Under the pieces are notes generated by a model that was not told where the DNA came from, ran no database searches, and worked only from the letters and a program-made list of their open reading frames with translations. DNA of 64,000 nt from Bacillota bacterium. GTDB taxonomy: Bacteria > Bacillota > Sulfobacillia > JABLXB01. A program made the position numbers and the translations under genes. Of this stretch, positions 13,913-60,527 are shown piece by piece (positions within the stretch are counted from its first letter, which is position 1; every line of letters starts with the position of its first letter). The stretch spans positions 140,203 to 204,202 of the forward strand of contig JABLXB010000001.1 of NCBI GenBank assembly GCA_013178305.1, read 5' to 3'.

Positions 13913-14108
13913 TAAAAGGAATGCTGTAAGAAGCATGGTATTAACATGGTTGTGCAAGCACAACCGAATGAAAATCGAAGAAGGGGGTGTAACAGGTTGT
14001 TACAATCCCCTTCTTCATTCGCGTTCTTGAGTCGCTCGCGACCCAATGTAACCCCTTGTGACATGTCACGCGAACGTGTTACATAGGGCGTGATTCACCA
14101 GGCGTAAT

Positions 14109-15866
14109 TCAGTCTTCCAGCAGCCTATAGATGGTCTGGCGCGACACTCCCAACAGATTCGCGGCTCTCCTCTTATTGCCCCCTGTCAGTTTCAGCGTCT
14201 CCATGACCGCTTTCCTATTGGTATCCATTTGCTCCTTTTGGCTGATGAATTTACGTCCCGCAGGATGCAGTCCTGACACAAGCAAATCGTCCTCGGTGAT
14301 GTACTTCCCTTTACAGACGCAGAGAGCCCTGGATAGCGTGTTCTCCATCTCCCTGGCATTACCCGGCCAGCTGTGGAGCGACAACACCCTCCTGGCTTTG
14401 GGGTCTATTCCCTCTACCTCCTTGTTGATCGCTTTGCCCAGTTTCTTCAAGAAGGAATCGGCCAGAACCTGGATATCCTCTCTCCTCTCTCTCAGAGGAG
14501 GTATGCTAATATAAAGTACCTTAAGTCTGAAGTACAGGTCGGCCCGGAACTTCCCGTCCCTGACCATCTCTTCAAGGTCCCGGTTGGTTGCCGCGATTAC
14601 CCTGACATTAACGAAGAAGGGTTTACTTCCACCGATTCTGGTAATGCTCGTGGTTTCGAGAACCCTTAAGAGTTTGGCCTGCAAGTGGATCGGCATTTCG
14701 CTTACTTCATCGAGAAACAGGGTCCCACCGTTGGCGAGCTCGAACTTTCCTGGTTTGCCACCTTTTCTGGCGCCGGTGAATGCCCCCTCCTCGTAGCCAA
14801 ACAGCTCACTATCGATCAGTTCGTTGGGGAAGTTGGCACAGTTGACGGCAACAAAGGGCTCCGACTTCCGGGCGCTGTAATTGTGGATGGCCTGGGCAAA
14901 GAGCTCTTTACCGGTTCCACTCTCGCCCTGTATTAATATGTTCGCTGTACTCTGCGAAAAGGTTTTTGCCAGGGATATCCTCTCTTTTATTGCCGGGCTT
15001 TCGCCGATTATGTCGTCAAATCTGAACGTCGCTTCATACCCTGCAATGGTGTTGGCCAATTTCCGGGAACGTTTCATGCTTCTGAATATATCAATGGCGC
15101 CAATGATGTTCCCCGAGTCATCAAAGACGGGGTAACCGGAGTTATACAGATGCATCGCATTGCCTTTGAACTTCAAAAAATACTCATAATCCACGATGCT
15201 CGTTTTCTTATTCAGGATTTTGAGCAAGAAGGAATTCGTGACGAATTCGTCAATGCTTCTGCCTATGAATTCTTCCCGTGGCGTTTTTGTCATCTCGCAG
15301 CACATTTTGTTAACGTAAACGAATCTGCCGTCTTTATCGCACGCGGAGATTCCATCTTCAATATGATCAAGGAAGCGCACAAGGAGCTCATATTTCTTTT
15401 CGGCGTTGTACTTGTTAACCACTGCTGCAATGTCATTGATGTTCTTAGCGGTGTTCACCAGGAATTTTGGGATGTCGTCCTCTTCTTTGTCTGTTGCGAA
15501 GCACAAATAGTAATCTAAACCCTCTTCTTCCCCCGATTTATGATAAAAGTACAAGATGACCTTCCCAGGCTCATTTAAATCCCTGACGAATTTCGCGACT
15601 GTATCGGAATCAATCTTCGGCTTATACGATATGTCGAAGCATTTCCCTACCAATTCCTTCAACTGCGGTTTATCTTTAGCATGTACGGCAAGGATCGTGA
15701 AACTGCGGTCCAGGAGTAGAAGGCAAGAGTCTTTCCCACACATGGTCATGAGGCAGGATAGACCAAAACAGTCTGTCAATACGCGTCTTCCTGTATCAAT
15801 GGCCCTTTCCACAACATCCTTGGCTATCGCTGAGTAGAGAAATCGAATGACAACATCGTTGAGCAT
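14109..15866 (-). CDS. sigma-54-dependent transcriptional activator with N-terminal sensory/PAS region, AAA+ sigma-54 interaction domain and C-terminal Fis-type HTH (RocR-like)
   Basis: Contains GESGTGKELFAQAIH and GAFTGA sigma-54 interaction motifs. The C-terminal HTH reads RRAANLLGVSRQTIYRLL. The gene is about 45% GC against about 65% in its neighbours. Confidence 0.85.
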   Translation of the reverse strand: MLNDVVIRFLYSAIAKDVVERAIDTGRRVLTDCFGLSCLMTMCGKDSCLLLLDRSFTILAVHAKDKPQLKELVGKCFDISYKPKIDSDTVAKFVRDLNEPGKVILYFYHKSGEEEGLDYYLCFATDKEEDDIPKFLVNTAKNINDIAAVVNKYNAEKKYELLVRFLDHIEDGISACDKDGRFVYVNKMCCEMTKTPREEFIGRSIDEFVTNSFLLKILNKKTSIVDYEYFLKFKGNAMHLYNSGYPVFDDSGNIIGAIDIFRSMKRSRKLANTIAGYEATFRFDDIIGESPAIKERISLAKTFSQSTANILIQGESGTGKELFAQAIHNYSARKSEPFVAVNCANFPNELIDSELFGYEEGAFTGARKGGKPGKFELANGGTLFLDEVSEMPIHLQAKLLRVLETTSITRIGGSKPFFVNVRVIAATNRDLEEMVRDGKFRADLYFRLKVLYISIPPLRERREDIQVLADSFLKKLGKAINKEVEGIDPKARRVLSLHSWPGNAREMENTLSRALCVCKGKYITEDDLLVSGLHPAGRKFISQKEQMDTNRKAVMETLKLTGGNKRRAANLLGVSRQTIYRLLED

Positions 15867-16047
15867 AATAACCTCTCCCGGCTGAAGTGGGTGATTTGTG
15901 CTTCACTGGTGAGACCCTGCTATCCTTCTAGCAATCACTATGCTCATGATGAGTATGGGTCACATGGTAAACCGCCCCGTCAATCAAGCGGGGCGGCTGT
16001 GTTCTGAAACTGGCGGTTGTCGGCGCATGCCGGACTGTGGGGGTACT

Positions 16048-19560: not shown

Positions 19561-21906
19561 TCAGCGGGACGGCCGCCGGAGCGTGCCCGAGGGGTTGTAT
19601 CGCCTGAGGCGCAGGGAGTTGGTCACCACCGACACGGAACTCGCCGCCATGGCCGCACCCGCGATTATCGGGCTCAGCTTGCCCAGCGCGGCCACGGGTA
19701 TTCCGACGGTATTGTATACGAACGCCCAGAAAAGGTTCTGCTTGATCGTCCTCATCGTCGCCCTGGACAGCCGGATGGCGCGGACAACGCCCCTCAGGTC
19801 CCCGCTTATCAGGGTGATCCCGGCAGCCTCCATGGCGACGTCCATCCCCGTCCCGATCGCGATGCCTATATCCGCGGTGGCCAGCGCGGGGGCGTCGTTT
19901 ATGCCGTCCCCCACCATGGCCACGATCTCGCCGCGGCGCTTGAGCTCCTCGACCTTACCCGCCTTGTCCCCGGGGAGCACCTCCGCGATGACCTCATCGA
20001 TCCCGGCCTGTGCCGCTATGGCGCGCGCGGTGCGGCGGTTGTCCCCCGTAAGCATCATCACCTTGACGCCCATCGAACGGAGTTCATCCACCGCGGCGCG
20101 GGCTTCGTCCTTCAGCGTGTCGGCCACGGCCACGACTCCGGCCGGCGCCCCGTCCATCGCGAGGACGATCGCGGTCTTGCCCTGCTCCTCGAGCGCGATC
20201 ACGTGGGGCTCGAGCGGTTCCATGCCTATCCCCGCATCGCGCATGAGCGCGCGATTACCCGCCAGCACCTGCCGCGCGGTGGCGTTTGACGAGACCGTCG
20301 CCCTGACGCCCTGGCCGGGTATGGCCACGAAGTCCACAGGTTCTCGAACCTCGATACCCTGTGAACGGGCGTATTCCACGATGGCTACCCCGAGCGGGTG
20401 CTCGGACCCCCGCTCCGCGGAGGCGGTAAGTTCGAGCAGTGTGGAGCGGTCCAGCGGTTCGAGCGTGACGACGTCCGTGACGGAAGGCTGCCCGCGTGTC
20501 AGAGTGCCGGTCTTGTCCAGCACCACGACCGTCACCTTGTGGGCGCGCTCCAGGTGCTCTCCTCCCCTGATGAGGATACCCATCTCCGCGCCGCGCCCTG
20601 TGCCCACCATTATCGCGGTCGGAGTGGCGAGACCCAGCGCGCACGGGCACGCGATCACGAGCACCGCGGTCATCGACAGCAGAGACCTCGTGACGTCCCC
20701 CGTCACGATGAACCACGCGACAAACGTCACCGCGGCAACGCCCAGGACCGCCGGAACGAAGTACGCCGCCACGGTATCGGCGATGCGCTGGATGGGGGCT
20801 TTCGACCCCTGCGCCTCCTCGACGAGGGCGATGATCCTGGCGAGCGCCGTGTCGCGGCCGACCTTTTGCGCTTCGAACGTAAACGAGCCGTGCTTGTTGA
20901 TAGTACCCCCGATTACCTCGCTCCCCGGTGACTTCTCGACGGGTATGCTCTCGCCGGTGAGCATGCTCTCGTCAACCGCGGAATGGCCGCTCACCACTAC
21001 CCCGTCGACAGGTATCCTCTCTCCCGGCCTCACAAGGACGTGGTCGCCCGGGCGCACCTCCTCGACCGGGACCTGCACCTCCTGGCCGCCCCTGATCACC
21101 GTCGCGCGGCGTGGCTGCAGGCCCATGAGCTTCTTTATCGCCTCCGAGGTGCGGCCCTTGGCGATCGCCTCCAGAAGCTTGCCCAGCACGACCAGCGTGA
21201 GTATCGTTGCGGACGCCTCGTAGTACATGTGGCCTTCGATGAAGAACGTGGTGGCCACGCTGTAGAAGTAGGCGGCCGACGTGCCCACTGCCACGAGCAC
21301 GTCCATGTTGGCGGCCCCGTGAATCAGGCTGAGCCATCCCCGCCTGTAGAACTGCCAGCCCACGATGCCCTGCACGAGGGTACCGAAGGCGAACTGCAGC
21401 CTGGCGTCCTCCAGGAAACGGAATACGTGGACGCCCAACAGGTGGCCGAACATCGGAAGAATCAAGGGGACCGTGAGAGCGGCCGAAAAAGCGAATGTCG
21501 CAGTCTGGATTCTGATCTCTCGCTCGCGCTCGGCCCGCTCGGCGTCGGCGGGGCTCCTCGACGGCTCTCCTGTCTCCCCGCGCGCCGCGGCGCCGGCCTC
21601 TCCCGAGGGCCGGTCCGCGTCCTGCGCCCTGTAGCCGAGCTTGCGCACCGACTCGAGCAGTGGCTCCAGCGGCGTGCCTGGCAAGACGTCTACCGAAGCC
21701 CGCTCTGTAGCGAGGTTGACCACCGCCCCGATCACGCCGGGCTGCCTGTTGAGCTCCTTTTCGATCCTCGCTGCGCAGGAAGCGCAGGACATCCCGCCTA
21801 GCAGGATGTTCAGCCGTTCCGTGCGCACCTTCGCCACGCCGGCCTCGCCGTCACGGACCACTTCGTCTCCGCCGGTTGTTGCGTGTGTGCGTTCCATACG
21901 GAACAC
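19561..21906 (-). CDS. copA: copper-translocating P1B-type ATPase
   Basis: N-terminal heavy-metal-associated motif [12 protein letters not shown], the CPC transmembrane motif, DKTGTLT phosphorylation site and a GDGINDAP hinge. Confidence 0.9.
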
Positions 21907-22117: not shown

Positions 22118-22387
22118 TTGGAGCGGATGGTGAGGAAACAACTATACATCACCTCGGAACACGAGTCGAAGCTGAAGTCAAAGTCGAGCGAGACCGGGGT
22201 GAGTGAGGGAGAAATCGTCAGGGAGGCACTGTCGAGATACCTGGACTCCTCCATTCCCCGGAAGCAAGGGCTCTCCAACTGGGAAGACGAGATGGCCTTC
22301 ATCAAGTCACTTCAAGCGAAGGGCCCAGTTCCCGGAGGCCGCACCTGGAAGAGGGAGGAACTCTATGACAGGCCCCGCACTGATTGA
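22118..22387 (+). CDS. vapB: ribbon-helix-helix (CopG-like) antitoxin of a VapBC pair
   Basis: The segment LYITSEHESKLKSKSSETGVSEGEIVREALSRYL fits an RHH fold. TTG 22118 lies after a GGAGGTG RBS. The ORF overlaps the PIN gene start by 23 nt. Confidence 0.55.
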   Translation: MERMVRKQLYITSEHESKLKSKSSETGVSEGEIVREALSRYLDSSIPRKQGLSNWEDEMAFIKSLQAKGPVPGGRTWKREELYDRPRTD

Positions 22388-22790
22388 CTCAAACATCCTG
22401 GTATACGCGTACGACCGATCGGAGATGGAGAGGAGCCTCGTGGCGAGTGACGTGATTAACAACCTCGCCCGGACCGGCTTGTTGATACTCAGTTCGCAGG
22501 TTCTTGCCGAGTTCTTCGTGGCGGCCACACGGCGTATTCGTCACCCGCTCACGGCGTCCGAGGCTACCCGGTCTGTCCTGCGCTACGCGGCCGACTTCCC
22601 CGTCGTAGCCATCACCGGGCCAATTGTGCGCGAGGCCCTTAGAGGAGTGGCGTCTTATGGTCTTAGCTACTGGGACGCTCAGGTGTGGGCCACGGCCCGG
22701 CTCAACCAGATTGAAACCATTGTTACGGAAGATGTGCCGTCGCAGGACGAGATCGAGGGGGTCAGGTATGAGAATCCATTCGAGCATTGA
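22365..22790 (+). CDS. vapC: PIN-domain toxin
   Basis: MTGPALIDSNILVYAYD ... TEDVPSQDE carries the characteristic PIN acidic residues. ATG 22365 has a GAGGGAGG RBS. Confidence 0.65.
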   Translation: MTGPALIDSNILVYAYDRSEMERSLVASDVINNLARTGLLILSSQVLAEFFVAATRRIRHPLTASEATRSVLRYAADFPVVAITGPIVREALRGVASYGLSYWDAQVWATARLNQIETIVTEDVPSQDEIEGVRYENPFEH

Positions 22791-22893
22791 CGACGGCCGG
22801 CGACCTCAGTGGCACGAAAAGAAGAGGGCGGCTCGGCTATCCCGCCCCCTCCTGGACCATGAGCCCCGCTTCAGTTTCCGGTGGACGAACCCC

Positions 22894-23718
22894 CTAGGTT
22901 GTACCTGATCCACTTGGCGCCTGAGCCGGAGGTTCCTCCTGGTCCTGCGCGGGGTCATCAGGGTACTCCTCGAGCGGCTGGTCCCCCACTACCACAGTAC
23001 CCGAGTCATTGTCGAAATCGACTTCGCAGCCGAGCGCCTGAGCGATGAACCTGAGGGGGATGACCGTCCTGCCGTTGATCGACTTCGGGGGGACGTCCAG
23101 CTCGACCGGCTGCTCATTCACCAGCGCGGTCCTCGTTTCGAGCTGCAACCTGACTACCGTGTCACCCTTGGAGATGACTACCGTGCGGGTCTCGGCCTGC
23201 CACTCGACCGTCGCGCCCAGCGCTTCGACGAGGGCACGGACGGGGACCAGCGTCCTGCCGTCCTTGATGACGGGCGGCACGTCGAACGAGGGCTTCTTCC
23301 CGTTGACGAACACTTTGAGCGACCGGTCACCTTTCTGCGTGTAGACCCTGTACATGTTCGTATACAGGTTACGGTTCCGCGGATCGATCTCGATCGCCTT
23401 TTGCAGCGCCTCGAGGGTTTGGGCGGTATCCCCGGCGTCCTCGTGCATCCGGGCAAGTTCTTTCAGCGCGTGAACGCTGTCCGGGTGCTCGGAGAGGTAC
23501 TTCTTTAGCCCCTCCAGGGCTGCGGCGCGGTTCACGGCCGCTTTGATCATCTCCTTCACCTGAGCACGATCCCTTGCCTTTTCCCGGTCCCTCTCCTGCG
23601 TCCTGTCCTGCTCCGCATCGGAGGAGTTGGTCTGCGGGGCCGCAGCTGCAGCCGACCCCGCAACCAACACGGTGACGAGTATCACCGCCAGCACCGCAAA
23701 GCCAGTCGTCCTCTTCAT
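22894..23718 (-). CDS. secreted protein with signal peptide, TPR-like helical region and a C-terminal copper-amine-oxidase N-terminal-like (stalk) domain; paralog A
   Basis: Start at MKRTTGFAVLAVILV (GAGGAGG RBS). The C-terminus SLKVFVNGKKPSFDVPPVIKDGRTLVPVRALVEALGATVEWQ is about 80% identical to the 24622..25681 product. Confidence 0.7.
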   Translation of the reverse strand: MKRTTGFAVLAVILVTVLVAGSAAAAAPQTNSSDAEQDRTQERDREKARDRAQVKEMIKAAVNRAAALEGLKKYLSEHPDSVHALKELARMHEDAGDTAQTLEALQKAIEIDPRNRNLYTNMYRVYTQKGDRSLKVFVNGKKPSFDVPPVIKDGRTLVPVRALVEALGATVEWQAETRTVVISKGDTVVRLQLETRTALVNEQPVELDVPPKSINGRTVIPLRFIAQALGCEVDFDNDSGTVVVGDQPLEEYPDDPAQDQEEPPAQAPSGSGTT

Positions 23719-23761
23719 AGTCCCATACCTCCTCGTTCTTGATCCCGGCGGTCTCACTCAT

Positions 23762-23794
23762 CTCATACGCGGAACCGATGATATTTTGGGGGGT
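23762..23794 (-). promoter_or_regulatory. SigI-type promoter (-35 ACCCCCC, 18-nt spacer, -10 CGTATGA) for paralog A
   Basis: The minus strand reads TACCCCCCAAAATATCATCGGTTCCGCGTATGAG, matching the SigI consensus of a poly-C -35 with a CGWA -10. Confidence 0.5.
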
Positions 23795-23827
23795 ACCCAC
23801 CGAAGCGCGCGGGCCCCATCGTATTGA
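23795..23827 (+). promoter_or_regulatory. SigI-type promoter (-35 ACCCACC, 18-nt spacer, -10 CGTATTGA) for sigI, back-to-back with the previous element
   Basis: ACCCACC GAAGCGCGCGGGCCCCAT CGTATTGA lies immediately upstream of the sigI RBS (GTGAGGGG). The leader would be very short. Confidence 0.35.
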
Positions 23828-23837
23828 TAGGTGAGGG

Positions 23838-24512
23838 GTGGGTGTGGAAGCTGGCCTGGGCACCGACATCTCGAGAATAAAGGAAGACAGGCGCCTGCGG
23901 GACTCCTTCCTGGAATCCCACCGGGAGTTCGTAAGGAGATACGCGTCGTTTGTGTCGCATCGCCCGTTAAATTGGGAGAACGATGACGAACTCAGCGTGG
24001 GCCTGATCGCCCTGAACGACGCGATAGACTCGTACGACCCGCGCGCCGGAGTGGGTTTCCTGAGCTACGCGAAGGTGCTCATACGTCGGCGCCTGATCGA
24101 CCAGTTCAGGAAATCGGCCGCGCTGGACGTCGAAGGGCCGCTGGAAGACGACATGCGGGTTGCCGCCCGGACCGCCCCGGATGATGAGGAAAGACTCGAG
24201 CGGGCGTACGAGATGTCGTGTTTCGAGCAGCGCATGGCGGAGTTCGGGATAACCCTGAACGATCTTGTAAGAAACTCTCCCAGTCACCGGCCGACCCGAC
24301 AGACGCTGATGCAGGTAGCGCTGGCGGCCTACAGGTGTCCGGAAATCGTGCAGCGACTGCGCACAACAGGGCAACTTCCACTGAAGGAGATCCAGATGAT
24401 AACGGGTTGCAGCCGGAAGGTGCTCGAAACCTGGCGCAAGTATCTAATCTCTCTCATCGTCATCCTCACCGAAGACGAGCTCGAAGGCACACGGGAGTTC
24501 ATATTTGGGTAG
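23838..24512 (+). CDS. sigI: RNA polymerase sigma factor SigI
   Basis: LIALNDAIDSYDPRAGVGFLSYAKVLIRRRLIDQFRK aligns with B. subtilis SigI region 2, and the length is right. Start is GTG 23838 or GTG 23844. Confidence 0.8.
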   Translation: MGVEAGLGTDISRIKEDRRLRDSFLESHREFVRRYASFVSHRPLNWENDDELSVGLIALNDAIDSYDPRAGVGFLSYAKVLIRRRLIDQFRKSAALDVEGPLEDDMRVAARTAPDDEERLERAYEMSCFEQRMAEFGITLNDLVRNSPSHRPTRQTLMQVALAAYRCPEIVQRLRTTGQLPLKEIQMITGCSRKVLETWRKYLISLIVILTEDELEGTREFIFG

Positions 24513-24621
24513 CCGTCGCAGGCGCAGGTGGGTCGTTCTGAAACCGCCAAAGCCCGGGCGTGCATGAAGAGGGCGGCGTCTTCACAGCCGCCGCCCTCTT
24601 CATGTTGCCCCCAATTCTGCG

Positions 24622-25681
24622 CTACTGCCCTTCGCCAACCATGACCATCCCTGACGCCCCGTCATAACTGATTTGATACTTCAGCGCCTCTCCAACGAAC
24701 CTCAGCGGGACTACAGTCCGGCCGTTCAACGACTCGGCTGGTACGTCCAGTTCCAGAGTCTTCCCGTTCACAAGGGCCGTCCTGGACTCCAGTTGCAGCC
24801 GGATCACCGTGTCACCTTTCGATATGATTACCTCGCGGGTCTGCGCCTGCCACTCCACGGTCGCCCCCAGCGCCTCGCTGACTGCCCTCACCGGGACAAG
24901 CGTCCTACCATCCTTGATGACGGGCGGCTGGTCGAAAGCCGGCCTCTTCCCGTTCACGAACACTTTCAGGGATTTCTCGCCCATCTTCGCATACAACCTT
25001 TGCATGTTCCTGTACAGGTTGTGGTTCTTAGGTTCAAAGGCAACCGCCTTCTCCAGAGCCTCTACTGCCTCGTCATCGTCCCCGTTTTCCTCATGGAGTG
25101 TGGCCAGGGCCTTCAGCGCCTCTTCGCTGTCCGCGTGCTCCTTGAGGTACGCCCGCAGCTGTTCCATCGCAGCCAGTCGATTGGCTACTGCGGTTTTAAG
25201 CATTCCCTCCACTTGCGCCTGCTCTTGTTCCTCTTCCTTTCCCTCCTTCAGATCCTCCAGCAGTTCCTTGGCTTCCTCCAGGCCGGGGTTCTCCTTTGCA
25301 TACTTCTCGGCATCTGCAATGGCCTCATCCAGATTGCCCGCCTTCGCCAGGGCCTCGATCGCCCTCAACCGTTCGCGGACGTTCTCCTGGAGCGTGGCCC
25401 ATTCCTTCTCGCGCTCACGCGCCTTTTCCGCTGCTTCCTCAGCTTCCTCGTCGACCTCACCGTCGTCCTCATCATGGGCGGCACCGTCGTCCTCATCATG
25501 GGCGGCATCGTCGTCCTCATCATGGGCGGCATCGTCGTCCTCATCATGGGCGGCATCGTCGTCCTCATCATGGGCGGCCTGAGGTTTGCCCAGCGCCTCC
25601 GCCGAGCATAACCCGTACGATCCAGCCATCGACGCCAGCAAGAGCACGCCTACGAGCACAAGTACAATCGCCTTCTTCATT
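24622..25681 (-). CDS. secreted protein with signal peptide, acidic His-containing tandem repeats, TPR-like region and a C-terminal copper-amine-oxidase N-terminal-like domain; paralog B
   Basis: Start at MKKAIVLVLVGVLLLASMAGSYG (perfect AAGGAGG RBS). Contains (AAHDEDDD)x5 and a C-terminus paralogous to 22894..23718. Confidence 0.7.
25461..25578. repeat. 24-bp tandem repeat, about 4.9 copies (CGTCGTCCTCATCATGGGCGGCAY), inside the paralog B gene
   Basis: Read directly. It encodes AAHDEDDD repeats on the minus strand. Confidence 0.85.
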
Positions 25682-25785
25682 TTCGTTGCCTCCTTGTGAA
25701 GACTGACTACGCCTTCCTGCCAGAAACCGAGATGCTTGAGCCATTCCGCCAGCCGGCTGAAATCGCTCACCGGTCTTTTGATAAA

Positions 25786-25818
25786 TAAATACGGATTGTA
25801 GGCGTTGAATTGGGGGGT
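25786..25818 (-). promoter_or_regulatory. SigI-type promoter (-35 ACCCCCC, 18-nt spacer, -10 CGTATTTA) for paralog B
   Basis: The minus strand reads ACCCCCCAATTCAACGCCTACAATCCGTATTTA, about 100 nt upstream of the start codon. Confidence 0.5.
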
Positions 25819-25851
25819 ACCCACCAATACGTTGCGGTCCCTTCGTATTAG
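25819..25851 (+). promoter_or_regulatory. SigI-type promoter (-35 ACCCACC, 18-nt spacer, -10 CGTATTAG) for rsgI
   Basis: ACCCACC AATACGTTGCGGTCCCTT CGTATTAG, followed by a GTGAGGGGG RBS and GTG 25868. Confidence 0.35.
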
Positions 25852-25867
25852 GAAGTGAGGGGGCAGC

Positions 25868-27175
25868 GTGTCTACGAGGCGCTGGACTGAAGAGGTGGCA
25901 GCGGTGCGCTACGACGACATTGGACCGGGTAAAGGGCTGGTCATCAAGGTTCAGGGTAGCGAGTATTACGTTGTGTCCAGGGATTGCCGCTACTTGCGAC
26001 TCAGAGTCCGTGGCGTCGCACCGCGTCCCGGTGACATCGTCTGGCTACCTGCGACTTATCCGTCCCTGGTTCGCATCGCCATCGCAGCCTCCGTCCTACT
26101 GGTGATTGCTCTGGGAACTGCGGCGGTTGCGCTTCAGCGACAACCTGTTGCCTATATCGCTCTCGACATTAACCCAAGCGTCGAGCTAGGGCTCAACCGC
26201 TGGGAGAGGGTTGTGACCACCCGGGCGTTTAACCACGAGGGTTCGCTGCTTCTCAACCAGGTCTCGCTCAATGGGACGGGCATGATCAGCCGTCCGGCAG
26301 GGGAAGCGCTTGCCTCCATCGTTGAAGCCGCTATTGAGCACGGGTTCCTGTCACGTGAAGAAGACAACGTTATTCAAGTCGCGCTGCTGGCCCGGGAACG
26401 CCATTCACAGGCAATGGAGGAAAGTCTGCGAGAGCAGGTAGCGACAGTCTTGGAAAAGCGCGACGTGTCAGCGTATCTCAAGGTAAGAAGGGCCAGCCTT
26501 GAAACGCGAGATGCGGCCCGGAAGGAGAATCTCACGGTGAACGCCCACCTGTTGAAGAAGGAGGTCCAGGCTCAAGGTCTGGGCTCCACCGTGGCGGACT
26601 GGAGCAGACCACCTAAGGAGATTATTCGGAAAGTGGGAACCGGGAGGCTCTTTGATGCTAACGAATTCATAGGACATCACAGGAGCCGTGAGGAGACCAC
26701 AGGTGGTGCAGGGACTCCTCCGGTGTCTCCCGCGAACAGCGTCGGGGAGCCGGGCGCCACCACGGAGCCGATTCACGGTCGCGATCGCGCCGGGAAGAAC
26801 GACCCGACGGTCCCGCGACGTTCGCCCAAGAGGCCCAGCGGCAGCAGCGGCACGGTCAGGACCGGGGTGAAGCCCGGCTCTCAACCTGAGGCGGGCGACG
26901 CCAATCGTAGCCCCGCCGCTGGCAATACCGATTCGGGGACAGGGACACCCGTAGCGCCATCAACGCCAGCGCCGACTCCGCACGCGCCAGAGCAGCTGCC
27001 TCCGGGGCAACCTCCAGCGGGACAGTCTCCGGCAGGGCCACAACAGGAAGACGGCAAAAGCACGAACCCGGAGGCCCCGTCCTGGGAATACGACGAGAAC
27101 GAGGAAGAAGAACCGCACGAGGATGAGGATAAGGATGACAGCCCGTCACGAAGAGGGAAACCGGGCGGCAATTGA
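25868..27175 (+). CDS. rsgI: anti-sigma-I factor RsgI (N-terminal RsgI_N domain, single TM, extracytoplasmic domain, then a long Pro/Gly/Ser/Thr-rich tail)
   Basis: N-terminus YDDIGPGKGLVIKVQGSEYYVVSRDCRYLRLRVRGVAPRPGDIVWL matches RsgI_N. The TM helix is LVRIAIAASVLLVIALGTAAVAL. The region after the TM helix begins YIALDINPSVELGLN. Confidence 0.75.
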   Translation: MSTRRWTEEVAAVRYDDIGPGKGLVIKVQGSEYYVVSRDCRYLRLRVRGVAPRPGDIVWLPATYPSLVRIAIAASVLLVIALGTAAVALQRQPVAYIALDINPSVELGLNRWERVVTTRAFNHEGSLLLNQVSLNGTGMISRPAGEALASIVEAAIEHGFLSREEDNVIQVALLARERHSQAMEESLREQVATVLEKRDVSAYLKVRRASLETRDAARKENLTVNAHLLKKEVQAQGLGSTVADWSRPPKEIIRKVGTGRLFDANEFIGHHRSREETTGGAGTPPVSPANSVGEPGATTEPIHGRDRAGKNDPTVPRRSPKRPSGSSGTVRTGVKPGSQPEAGDANRSPAAGNTDSGTGTPVAPSTPAPTPHAPEQLPPGQPPAGQSPAGPQQEDGKSTNPEAPSWEYDENEEEEPHEDEDKDDSPSRRGKPGGN

Positions 27176-27225
27176 GCAGCGCCCGGTTCCTATCTTACGC
27201 GACCCCTGCACGACGCACTGTGCGC

Positions 27226-27777
27226 CTACGCCATCGTGCGTGCCTCCCGGCCGGCGAATTCATATCCGGCGTCAAGCGCCTTCCTGTTCATCTCCAGCGC
27301 GCGCTCATTCGGCGAGTTCTCCTCGAGCGCCTTATAGAGCGCCCCCCTGTCGACCACGGACGTGAGCGCCGCCGCGACACCAACCATGACGACGTTGGCG
27401 ACCCGCGGGTCGCCGAGCGACGCTGCGATGTCATTGACCGGCACGCGAACGACCTTGATGTCCTCGCGGTCGACGGCCTTGCCCACCAGGGACGAGTTGA
27501 CCAGCAGGTAGCCGCCTGGAACGACTGCCCCCACGAACTTATCCAGCGACGGGGCGTTCATCACGACCGCCAGGTTGGGCCGGTTCACGATCGGCGAGCC
27601 TATCCCGGACGTCGACACCACGACCGAGCAATTGGCCGTGCCGCCCCGCATCTCGGGTCCGTAGGATGGGAGCCAGGTGGATTCCTTGCCCTCGAGCATG
27701 CCCGCGTAGGCCATGATCTTGCCCATGAACATCACGCCCTGCCCGCCGAATCCCGCGAAAACGAATTTCTCAAGCAC
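27226..27777 (-). CDS. korC: 2-oxoacid:ferredoxin oxidoreductase gamma subunit
   Basis: 183 aa beginning MLEKFVFAGFGGQGVMFMGKIMAY, the typical POR/KOR gamma N-terminus. Confidence 0.85.
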   Translation of the reverse strand: MLEKFVFAGFGGQGVMFMGKIMAYAGMLEGKESTWLPSYGPEMRGGTANCSVVVSTSGIGSPIVNRPNLAVVMNAPSLDKFVGAVVPGGYLLVNSSLVGKAVDREDIKVVRVPVNDIAASLGDPRVANVVMVGVAAALTSVVDRGALYKALEENSPNERALEMNRKALDAGYEFAGREARTMA

Positions 27778-59510: not shown

Positions 59511-60527
59511 CTACGGCTTCACCATTAGGCATCCGACGAACCCCTTGATGCTGTTGTTGATGAACGACACTTCCCGCGCCTTGACGCCCCCCGCAAACCG
59601 GTGAAACATCTCGAGGTGCCTGTCTTCGTTCAGCAGGTTCCTGAACACGGCGGAGATGGTCTCGTCAGGCGAAGCGCCGGCGGTACGCTGCTCGTCCAGC
59701 GTCCGTGCGGCCACCGACTTCCACAGCCCAAGCTGCTTCCTGTGGAGGTCCATCAGAAACCCGGGCCTCCTCGAATACCCGAAGTGACCGTAGCACATGA
59801 CCGAAGCCTCATGGTTCCGCAGCTCCTCCACCGACCGCACGCTCACGTCGTAGAAAAACCTCGGGGGGGTCGCCGGCCTGATGTACGGGAGGAAGTCCTC
59901 GCCGTCCTCCTCAGGCGGGCCGCCCCCTTCCCACGTGTATAGCCCGAGCGCCTCCCCCGCGAACATTACCTTCTCGTCCCCGAGGTCGTAGATGAACGAG
60001 AAGTGATGGGGCGCGTGGCCCGGCGTTTCAATCACCCGGAGGCCTTCCACGGAGGAGCCGTCAGGCCGGAGGTTACCCGCCGGGACCGGAGCTATCGGGC
60101 CGTACGCACTCGCCAGTTCCCGCAGCGTTTGAATGCTCGCCTGCATGAGCCGGGATGGCTCGATCAGGTGCGGGTGGCCCTTGGGGTGGGCGATGACCAT
60201 CGCCTCCGGGTGGTACGCCAGGAAATCGCCGAGACCGCCCATGTGGTCGATGTGCGCGTGGGTCAGCAAGACGTAGTCGACCCGGTTCACGCCCAGAGCC
60301 TTCAGACCGGAAACGAGGTCCGGCACCGTCGCGGCAGGGCCGACGTCAACAACGGTGTTCTTACCCCTCGCGGCGTCGACGATGACCCACGGGGTTATGA
60401 AATGGTCAAGCCCAGGTACTACCGGCGGCATATCGAGCCTGTAGAGGGCTCCTCCCCGTGTCTCCAAAACCTCGACTGCGGACGGCAGGCCTGCCGTGGT
60501 CCGGAATTGACTGTTCACGAAATCCAC
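59511..60527 (-). CDS. MBL-fold metallo-hydrolase
   Basis: VLLTHAHIDHMGG is the HxHxDH zinc motif; 338 aa. Confidence 0.8.
   Translation of the reverse strand: MDFVNSQFRTTAGLPSAVEVLETRGGALYRLDMPPVVPGLDHFITPWVIVDAARGKNTVVDVGPAATVPDLVSGLKALGVNRVDYVLLTHAHIDHMGGLGDFLAYHPEAMVIAHPKGHPHLIEPSRLMQASIQTLRELASAYGPIAPVPAGNLRPDGSSVEGLRVIETPGHAPHHFSFIYDLGDEKVMFAGEALGLYTWEGGGPPEEDGEDFLPYIRPATPPRFFYDVSVRSVEELRNHEASVMCYGHFGYSRRPGFLMDLHRKQLGLWKSVAARTLDEQRTAGASPDETISAVFRNLLNEDRHLEMFHRFAGGVKAREVSFINNSIKGFVGCLMVKP

Follow-up and report, generated by a model that had tools for sequence, protein, structure and literature searches.

The locus described here lies in a 64-kb stretch of contig JABLXB010000001.1, from an uncultured Bacillota bacterium; the whole stretch is here denoted the window. 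On the plus strand, 23844-24512 encodes a SigI-family sigma factor of 222 amino acids (sigI), with a GTG start. Upstream of sigI and divergent from it is a minus-strand gene (22894-23718, denoted paralog A) encoding a secreted protein in which a signal peptide is combined with TPR repeats and a Cu_amine_oxidN1 domain (PF07833). Its ATG is at 23718 and its Shine-Dalgarno (SD) sequence, GAGGAGG, at 23734-23728. Downstream of sigI we noticed a second minus-strand gene of the same architecture (24622-25680, denoted paralog B), whose secreted product carries a signal peptide, acidic/His repeats, TPR repeats and Cu_amine_oxidN1. It is followed on the plus strand by rsgI (25868-27175), encoding an anti-sigma-I protein. 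One pair of promoter motifs lies between paralog A and sigI (module 1) and another between paralog B and rsgI (module 2, 25790-25847). Judging from the sequence, we consider it probable, at about three chances in four, that 23763-23827 is a compact divergent control region formed by two SigI-type promoters and part of a duplicated SigI-driven circuit.

The two promoters of module 1 point outwards, the minus-strand one towards paralog A and the plus-strand one towards sigI. On the minus strand, the -35 element ACCCCCC (23794-23788) is followed by CA-AA, an extended -35 or A-tract that matches the Bacillales ACCCCC--AA, and the -10 element is CGTATGA (23769-23763, with CGTA at 23769-23766). On the plus strand, the -35 element ACCCACC (23795-23801) is followed by G-AA, and the -10 element is CGTATTGA (23820-23827, with CGTA at 23820-23823). 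The spacing from -35 to -10 is N18 on both strands. The motifs named in the original prediction, ACCCCCC-N18-CGTATGA and ACCCACC-N18-CGTATTGA, are thus present, at 23794-23763 and 23795-23827, respectively. The -35 elements meet between T23794 and A23795 (GGGGGGT next to ACCCACC), producing a near-palindromic 16-bp core, TTGGGGGGTACCCACC, at 23786-23801. Its centre reads GGTACC because two ACCC-initial elements stand back to back. The two -35 elements had been described as overlapping around this centre; the centre is there, but the hexamers directly abut and share no base. Likewise, a module of 45 bp had been proposed, whereas we measured 58 bp from CGTA to CGTA and 79 bp between the predicted start sites. 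The -10 boxes are separated by 50 bp. The -35 centres, at a distance of 6 bp, lie on roughly opposite faces of the helix, and the -40 to -45 region of each promoter is the -35 element of the other.

The consensus given for SigI promoters of Bacillales is ACCCCC--AA 15(N) CGAA----T, and sigI genes are subject to autoregulation (PMC4711584, Munoz-Gutierrez et al.; consensus from Tseng & Shaw). In clostridia the SigI -10 box is CGWA (PMC4711584). Cryo-electron microscopy (cryo-EM) assigned this tetrad as C-14 G-13 W-12 A-11, read by SigI6 residues R97, R98, D101 and R104, while H171/R172, a His-Arg pair entering the minor groove, read the A-tract (PMC10575876). All four sites of modules 1 and 2 have the form ACCC(C/A)C-NN-A(A/T)-N15-CGTA, fitting the Bacillales consensus in both sequence and spacing. 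Each carries CGTA as its -10 tetrad and a C-rich -35 with an A-tract at the consensus distance, the A-tract being short (1-2 A). The consensus written as a pattern, ACCNNC-NN-AW-N15-CGWA, has four matches in the 64 kb against 0.26 expected, exactly the sites of modules 1 and 2, and no further SigI-type site was found in the window by this pattern. The pattern ACCCNCC-N17-19-CGTA has five matches against 0.51 expected, a number reached in 0/100 shuffles; four of the five are the two back-to-back pairs of modules 1 and 2, and the fifth, at 60075, lies within open reading frames (ORFs) and looks accidental. A promoter scan of 22500-27500, including both intergenic regions, detected no sigma-70-like promoter. 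An Rfam search of 22800-27300 returned just two sub-threshold matches within coding sequence, and a known RNA element was rejected as an explanation on that account.

The genes on the two sides of module 1 are those originally predicted, sigI, which encodes a full-length SigI homologue, and the divergently oriented paralog A, which encodes a secreted protein. The exact 222-amino-acid sigma product is on record, beginning at GTG 23844, and NCBIfam and structure alignments support its identity. It aligns full-length with the open-complex chains of C. thermocellum SigI6 (8I24, E 3e-25) and SigI1 (8I23, E 3e-21). The sigma-2-like N-terminal domain is recognised by Pfam Sigma70_r2 (E 5e-9, above cut-off) and aligns with the N-domains of SigI6 and SigI1. 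The SigIC domain is present too: the isolated C-domain of SigI1, 6IVU, aligns with residues 118-209 (E 4.5e-7), and the alignment with SigI6 extends to residue 242. The equivalents of SigI6 R97, R98, D101 and R104 are conserved (RR..D..R) in the window sequence IRRRLIDQFRK, as are the A-tract-binding H171 and R172 in SPSHRPTR, and R215 is replaced by K. The ten best NCBIfam matches are all SigI models, and the protein reads as a divergent SigI member and not as one of another family. For paralog A, Pfam detected PF07833 (E 1e-40) and TPR families, and a 274-amino-acid gene was called on an independent contig. The products of paralogs A and B share 64% identity over 191 amino acids; no further paralog of either was found within the window.

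In module 2, the promoter for paralog B (25790-25818, minus strand) consists of ACCCCCC at 25818-25812, N18 and CGTA at 25793-25790, and that for rsgI (25819-25847, plus strand) of ACCCACC at 25819-25825, N18 and CGTA at 25844-25847, both located by motif pattern. The exact 16-mer core of module 1 recurs here at 25810-25825. A cognate anti-sigma gene is present at the sigI locus, 1.35 kb downstream of sigI with paralog B in between. The product of rsgI has an RsgI_N domain, a transmembrane segment, a SEAL-type RsgI_M domain (Pfam E 1e-23; RsgI_N E 0.0026, below cut-off) and a long Pro/Gly/Ser-rich tail that looks disordered and has no carbohydrate-binding module. In every relative with enough sequence, rsgI is adjacent to or overlaps sigI. 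From this arrangement it appears that a copy of the paralog and its module was inserted between sigI and rsgI, and that the duplication is old.

Modules 1 and 2 cease to resemble each other at the GTG start codon. Two in-frame start codons come into question for rsgI. The first, GTG 25868, follows a copy of the sigI SD and is the one chosen by gene callers; the second, GTG 25904, has a separate SD (AGAGGTG), and it is here, not at GTG 25868, that the alignment with RsgI orthologues begins. No database record of rsgI beginning at GTG 25904 was found. The sigI ribosome-binding site and start codon may thus have been copied to 25855-25870 and joined in frame to rsgI, which would make GTG 25868 a relic of the duplication. 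Two independent Logan contigs (run SRR6186653) span both junctions of the inserted segment, making an assembly error unlikely; these contigs break only inside a 24-nt tandem repeat of paralog B. The repeat, 4.9 copies of a 24-nt unit at 98% identity (25461-25578, minus strand), encodes an acidic, His-containing stretch, (AAHDEDDD)n, right after the signal peptide, and paralog A has no such repeat.

Between the convergent sigI and paralog B lies a GC-rich hairpin (24556-24610) with a perfect stem of 17 bp (24562-24578 / 24589-24605). Its predicted folding energies on the two strands are -60.8 and -59.4 kcal/mol, with z values of -5.8 and -4.9 against shuffled controls. The hairpin has no U-tract and a simple terminator scan missed it; we regard it as a candidate two-way terminator. 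The hairpin and the convergent paralog B would together prevent read-through from sigI into rsgI. Cut off from sigI in this way, rsgI needs a promoter of its own, and the plus-strand promoter of module 2 appears to be the only recognisable route to its expression.

We then compared the locus with relatives gathered by protein similarity, independently of the motif (contigs denoted by L numbers). The sigma factors of L004 and L005/L006 are 59% and 57% identical, respectively, to that of the window; in these loci the module lies in the intergenic region between sigI and a divergently oriented TPR/Cu_amine_oxidN1 gene. In L002 (sigma 79% identical) the contig is cut at ACCCACC, and the plus-strand half is retained. 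When module 1, module 2, L004 and L005 were aligned ungapped on the core, the motif positions TACG, GGGGGGTACCCACC and CGTA were invariant (22/22), whereas only 3/36 spacer positions were, with pairwise spacer identities of 31-53%. The minus-strand TACG is invariant in these four sequences and the plus-strand CGTA in the four and L002. Neutral DNA between the module copies should have diverged, because paralogs A and B are just 64% identical. This conservation pattern reads as the trace of two promoters and not of a recent copy.

More distant sigI genes (31-47% identical) are preceded by a SigI-type promoter that points one way only. It reads ACCCCC-N19-CGTA in L016 and L019, ACCCTT-N19-CGTA in L017, ACCCAC-N19-CGTA in L024, ACCTCC-N19-CGAA in L025 (Zhaonella formicivorans CP085524.1) and ACCCCC-N20-CGTA in L027. 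L024 indicates, at the level of sequence, that ACCCAC serves as a -35 element without forming part of a palindrome. In L015 there is a looser back-to-back promoter pair with 16 bp of A/T in between, and L007 and L014 (sigma 47% identical) retain the promoter facing the TPR/Cu_amine_oxidN1 gene. Among GTDB representative genomes scanned for GGGGGGTACCCACC-N18-CGTA, a scan that did not return the window's own metagenome-assembled genome (MAG), a real module was found only in the L004 MAG. Isolated matches occurred in Arenicellales, Ignavibacteriales, Chitinophagaceae and the Bacillota contig L011; the last, the sole isolated match inspected, lies within a long ORF.

Transcription start sites were predicted 11 nt past the A of CGTA, following the cryo-EM numbering in which this base is A-11 (PMC10575876); the distance of 6-9 nt past CGTA given in the original prediction is accordingly too short. 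For paralog A the predicted start is G23755 on the minus strand, giving a 37-nt leader that contains the SD GAGGAGG, and for paralog B it is 25779 on the same strand, with a 99-nt leader. On the plus strand, sigI is predicted to start at A23834, the A within GGTGAGGGG, with a 10-nt leader AGGGGUGGGU before GUG 23844, and rsgI at A25858, likewise with a 10-nt leader. Both plus-strand starts are the A of GTGAGGGG, conserved in the two modules, and both leaders begin AGGGG. The earlier caveat that the plus-strand start falls inside the ribosome-binding site and leaves a short leader was accurate. The same geometry, with the predicted start on the first SD bases and leaders of 10-15 nt, is seen in L002, L005, L015, L016, L017, L023, L025 and L027. 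Because it recurs at nearly all of the more distant sigI genes with a one-way promoter, we take the short predicted leader as a family trait and not as evidence against function. In C. thermocellum, sigI leaders of 16-61 nt are listed, with 16-22 nt for several (PMC4711584). Folding of the predicted sigI and rsgI 5' ends revealed no structure beyond that of shuffled controls.

The architecture of the locus, its conservation and the identities of its genes are observed. The start sites, the dependence on SigI, the inducing signal and the occupancy of one module by two polymerases we infer, taking as a guide the work on SigI/RsgI of B. subtilis and C. thermocellum (PMC4711584, PMC10575876, PMC9732909, PMC10556640). 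In the proposed cascade, the membrane anti-sigma factor RsgI would keep SigI inactive until, in response to an envelope signal, RsgI is proteolysed and SigI set free. SigI holoenzyme would then fire all four promoters, so that SigI, RsgI and the two surface proteins rise together. The plus-strand promoter of module 1 would provide positive autoregulation of sigI through a leader of ~10 nt starting at the SD, and the near-identical plus-strand promoters would hold sigma and anti-sigma factor co-regulated though they no longer form one operon. Two polymerases at one module may act independently, help each other (e.g. by negative supercoiling between the divergent units) or exclude each other.

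Several points weigh against the interpretation of 23763-23827 as a pair of SigI promoters. The case is entirely computational and comes from an uncultured MAG. The upstream contacts of two polymerases would overlap at the abutting -35 elements, and simultaneous firing would not be assured. The A-tract, A-A or A-T, is shorter than the clostridial AAA(A). In the sigma factor, SigI6 K170 is replaced by S and S174 by T, and curated SigI cut-offs are not reached (185.9 against 244 bits for NF006175 and 153.6 against 185 for TIGR02895). The predicted sigI and rsgI leaders of ~10 nt, starting inside the SD, fall short of the 16-61 nt of C. thermocellum. Module 2 was found via the motif itself and is not an unbiased sample for the core. 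In L007 and L014, the sigI-side promoter is degenerate (CACCTA ... CGCA), and bidirectionality is therefore not universal. The computational tests nevertheless all agree with the two back-to-back SigI-type promoters originally predicted: a SigI homologue, consensus sequence and spacing, conservation, and no sigma-70-like promoter.

The most serious rival, given the short leader and the ACCCAC mismatch, is that only one direction is active: the minus-strand sites would drive the secreted-protein genes, the plus-strand ACCCAC...CGTA would be weak or silent, and sigI and rsgI would be transcribed from another, unrecognised promoter. The minus-strand sites do fit ACCCCC perfectly while the plus-strand -35 deviates, the plus-strand start is predicted inside the SD with a leader of ~10 nt, and only the minus-strand promoter is well preserved in L007 and L014. 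Yet five sequences share CGTA and ACCCACC on the plus strand without variation, despite the diverged spacer, and in L024 sigI is preceded by a solitary ACCCAC-N19-CGTA. A predicted start at the SD is seen again at sigI of L015, L016, L017, L023, L025 and L027, autoregulation of sigI is the rule (PMC4711584), and 22500-27500 offers no sigma-70-like promoter as a substitute. Moreover, rsgI is isolated by the convergent gene and the hairpin and needs its own promoter. We therefore consider a one-directional element unlikely. About as unlikely, in our judgement, is that the abutment of the -35 elements with zero gap is more than compact packing, namely a functional unit that fixes the output of sigma or anti-sigma factor relative to that of the secreted protein. 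The abutment is retained in both modules and in lineages whose sigma is just 57-59% identical. Such a unit would have two SigI holoenzymes on opposite faces of a 12-bp core, helping or excluding each other; the TPR/Cu_amine_oxidN1 protein might be an extracellular partner of the RsgI tail, which would close a feedback loop; and the duplication would have given a split sigma/anti-sigma pair, each gene hard-wired to its own partner copy.

A lower probability still attaches to the near-palindrome TTGGGGGGTACCCACCRA being the operator of a dimeric DNA-binding regulator, possibly besides the promoters, with its symmetry reflecting that protein. The core is an imperfect inverted repeat of 14-16 bp centred on GGTACC and invariant in four lineages, the zero-spacing abutment holds throughout the high-GC clade, and SigIC resembles winged-helix repressors that bind palindromes (PMC10575876). 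However, back-to-back ACCC-initial elements yield GGTACC automatically, with no need for a regulator, and the asymmetry of GGGGGG versus CCCACC is itself invariant. On both sides, the conservation extends as far as CGTA at a distance of exactly N18, which is more than an operator would require, and other genomes have each half by itself, in one direction, before sigI or target genes adjacent to it. The only regulator genes conserved at the locus are sigI and rsgI. That the repeat has no regulatory function, being left over passively from the duplication or matching by chance, is effectively excluded. C-rich strings are frequent in high-GC DNA, and the extra match at 60075 inside ORFs looks accidental, but matches in the window are 10-15 times commoner than in shuffled sequence. 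In addition, the duplicated flank has fallen to 31-53% identity while the motif is identical at 22/22 positions, and likewise in orthologous loci retrieved by protein.

The two-promoter reading places the element beside known SigI systems. With the Bacillales sigI-rsgI promoter it shares a position directly upstream of sigI, a -35 rich in C that is followed after two bases by AA, and a 15-nt spacer leading to a CGWA -10. The window RsgI resembles that of B. subtilis in RsgI_N, transmembrane segment, juxtamembrane RsgI_M and disordered-looking tail (PMC9732909). In contrast to Bacillales, the window promoter is paired head-to-head with a second one, the -35s abutting; its -10 is CGTA rather than CGAA, and the sigI-side -35 is ACCCAC; sigI and rsgI form separate transcription units, a copy of the module standing before each; and the co-regulated gene encodes a TPR/Cu_amine_oxidN1 secreted protein. 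In B. subtilis, the targets of SigI are lytE, mreBH and bcrC. Features in common with C. thermocellum SigI1-SigI8 (PMC4711584, PMC6056542, PMC10575876; 8I23/8I24) are the CGWA read by an RR..D..R helix and the A-tract read by His-Arg; SigI3 prefers a CCC triad, and short sigI leaders (16-22 nt) occur. However, the clostridial spacing is 13-14 nt after AAA whereas that of the window is of the Bacillales type, and clostridial RsgIs carry carbohydrate-binding sensors whereas the window sensor is a low-complexity tail.

Divergent transcription from pseudo-symmetric DNA is also known from bidirectional promoters with symmetric -10 elements (Warman et al., bioRxiv 10.1101/2020.01.31.928960; PMC12825309). 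In those, the -10s overlap, the distance between starts is 7-25 bp (mode 18 bp) and the polymerases exclude each other, whereas in the window it is the -35s that meet, with -10s 50 bp and predicted starts 79 bp apart. A promoter of this kind was rejected for module 1 on the positions of its -10 boxes (23766-23769 and 23820-23823) and the 79 bp between its predicted starts. By sequence, the element appears to belong to the classical back-to-back promoter class, here read by an alternative sigma factor.

The SigI promoter type and the autoregulation of sigI are already known. In the SigI literature searched, including the C. thermocellum SigI papers, we found no report of a bidirectional or divergent SigI promoter. 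Three features are not described in that literature: the SigI promoter pair with abutting -35s, its conservation with a TPR/Cu_amine_oxidN1 target in uncultured high-GC Bacillota, and the separation of sigI from rsgI by a duplication that left a module copy at each gene. If the reading is correct, the SigI promoter code ACCCCC--AA-N15-CGWA extends to a high-GC, uncultured lineage of Bacillota, and the locus offers a minimal two-way SigI-dependent element of ~80 bp, usable to ask whether two holoenzymes share abutting -35 sites. It would also present a sigma/anti-sigma operon split by duplication yet co-regulated, each half holding the same promoter copy, and surface proteins of the TPR/Cu_amine_oxidN1 type would be indicated as a conserved target of SigI in the lineage. 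The current understanding of SigI is not overturned.

In the literature searched, no report linking SigI to copper-amine-oxidase-like proteins was found; PF07833 came up there just as part of cell-surface proteins of clostridia, e.g. OlpC. SigI-type sites were also noticed before genes for small secreted proteins beside sigI-rsgI. In Zhaonella, ACCCCCC-N19-CGAA (L025 4645-4673) precedes a DUF2680 gene downstream of rsgI, and in L018 the same pattern (1652-1680) precedes a gene for a small Gly-rich secreted protein upstream of sigI. This suggests that a small secreted protein may commonly be a SigI target beside sigI-rsgI.

In the wider neighbourhood, a minus-strand gene at 19561-21906 encodes a heavy-metal (HMA) P-type ATPase, identified by Pfam, NCBIfam and independent gene calls. 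Such a gene adjoins the sigI locus in the window, in L004 (1-1705) and in Zhaonella formicivorans (L025 530-2695), where it is accompanied by an ArsR-type regulator. Between the ATPase gene and paralog A is a VapB/PIN toxin-antitoxin pair (22118-22790, plus strand), and a VapB/PIN-like pair lies immediately 3' of rsgI in L007 (7842-8442). Genes for a 2-oxoacid:ferredoxin oxidoreductase follow rsgI after 27175, on the minus strand and convergent with it. Farther away, the G+C content drops to 0.49 at 14001-16000, over an ORF at 14109-15866 (minus strand), compared with ~0.62 in the rest of the window, and this stretch may be acquired DNA.

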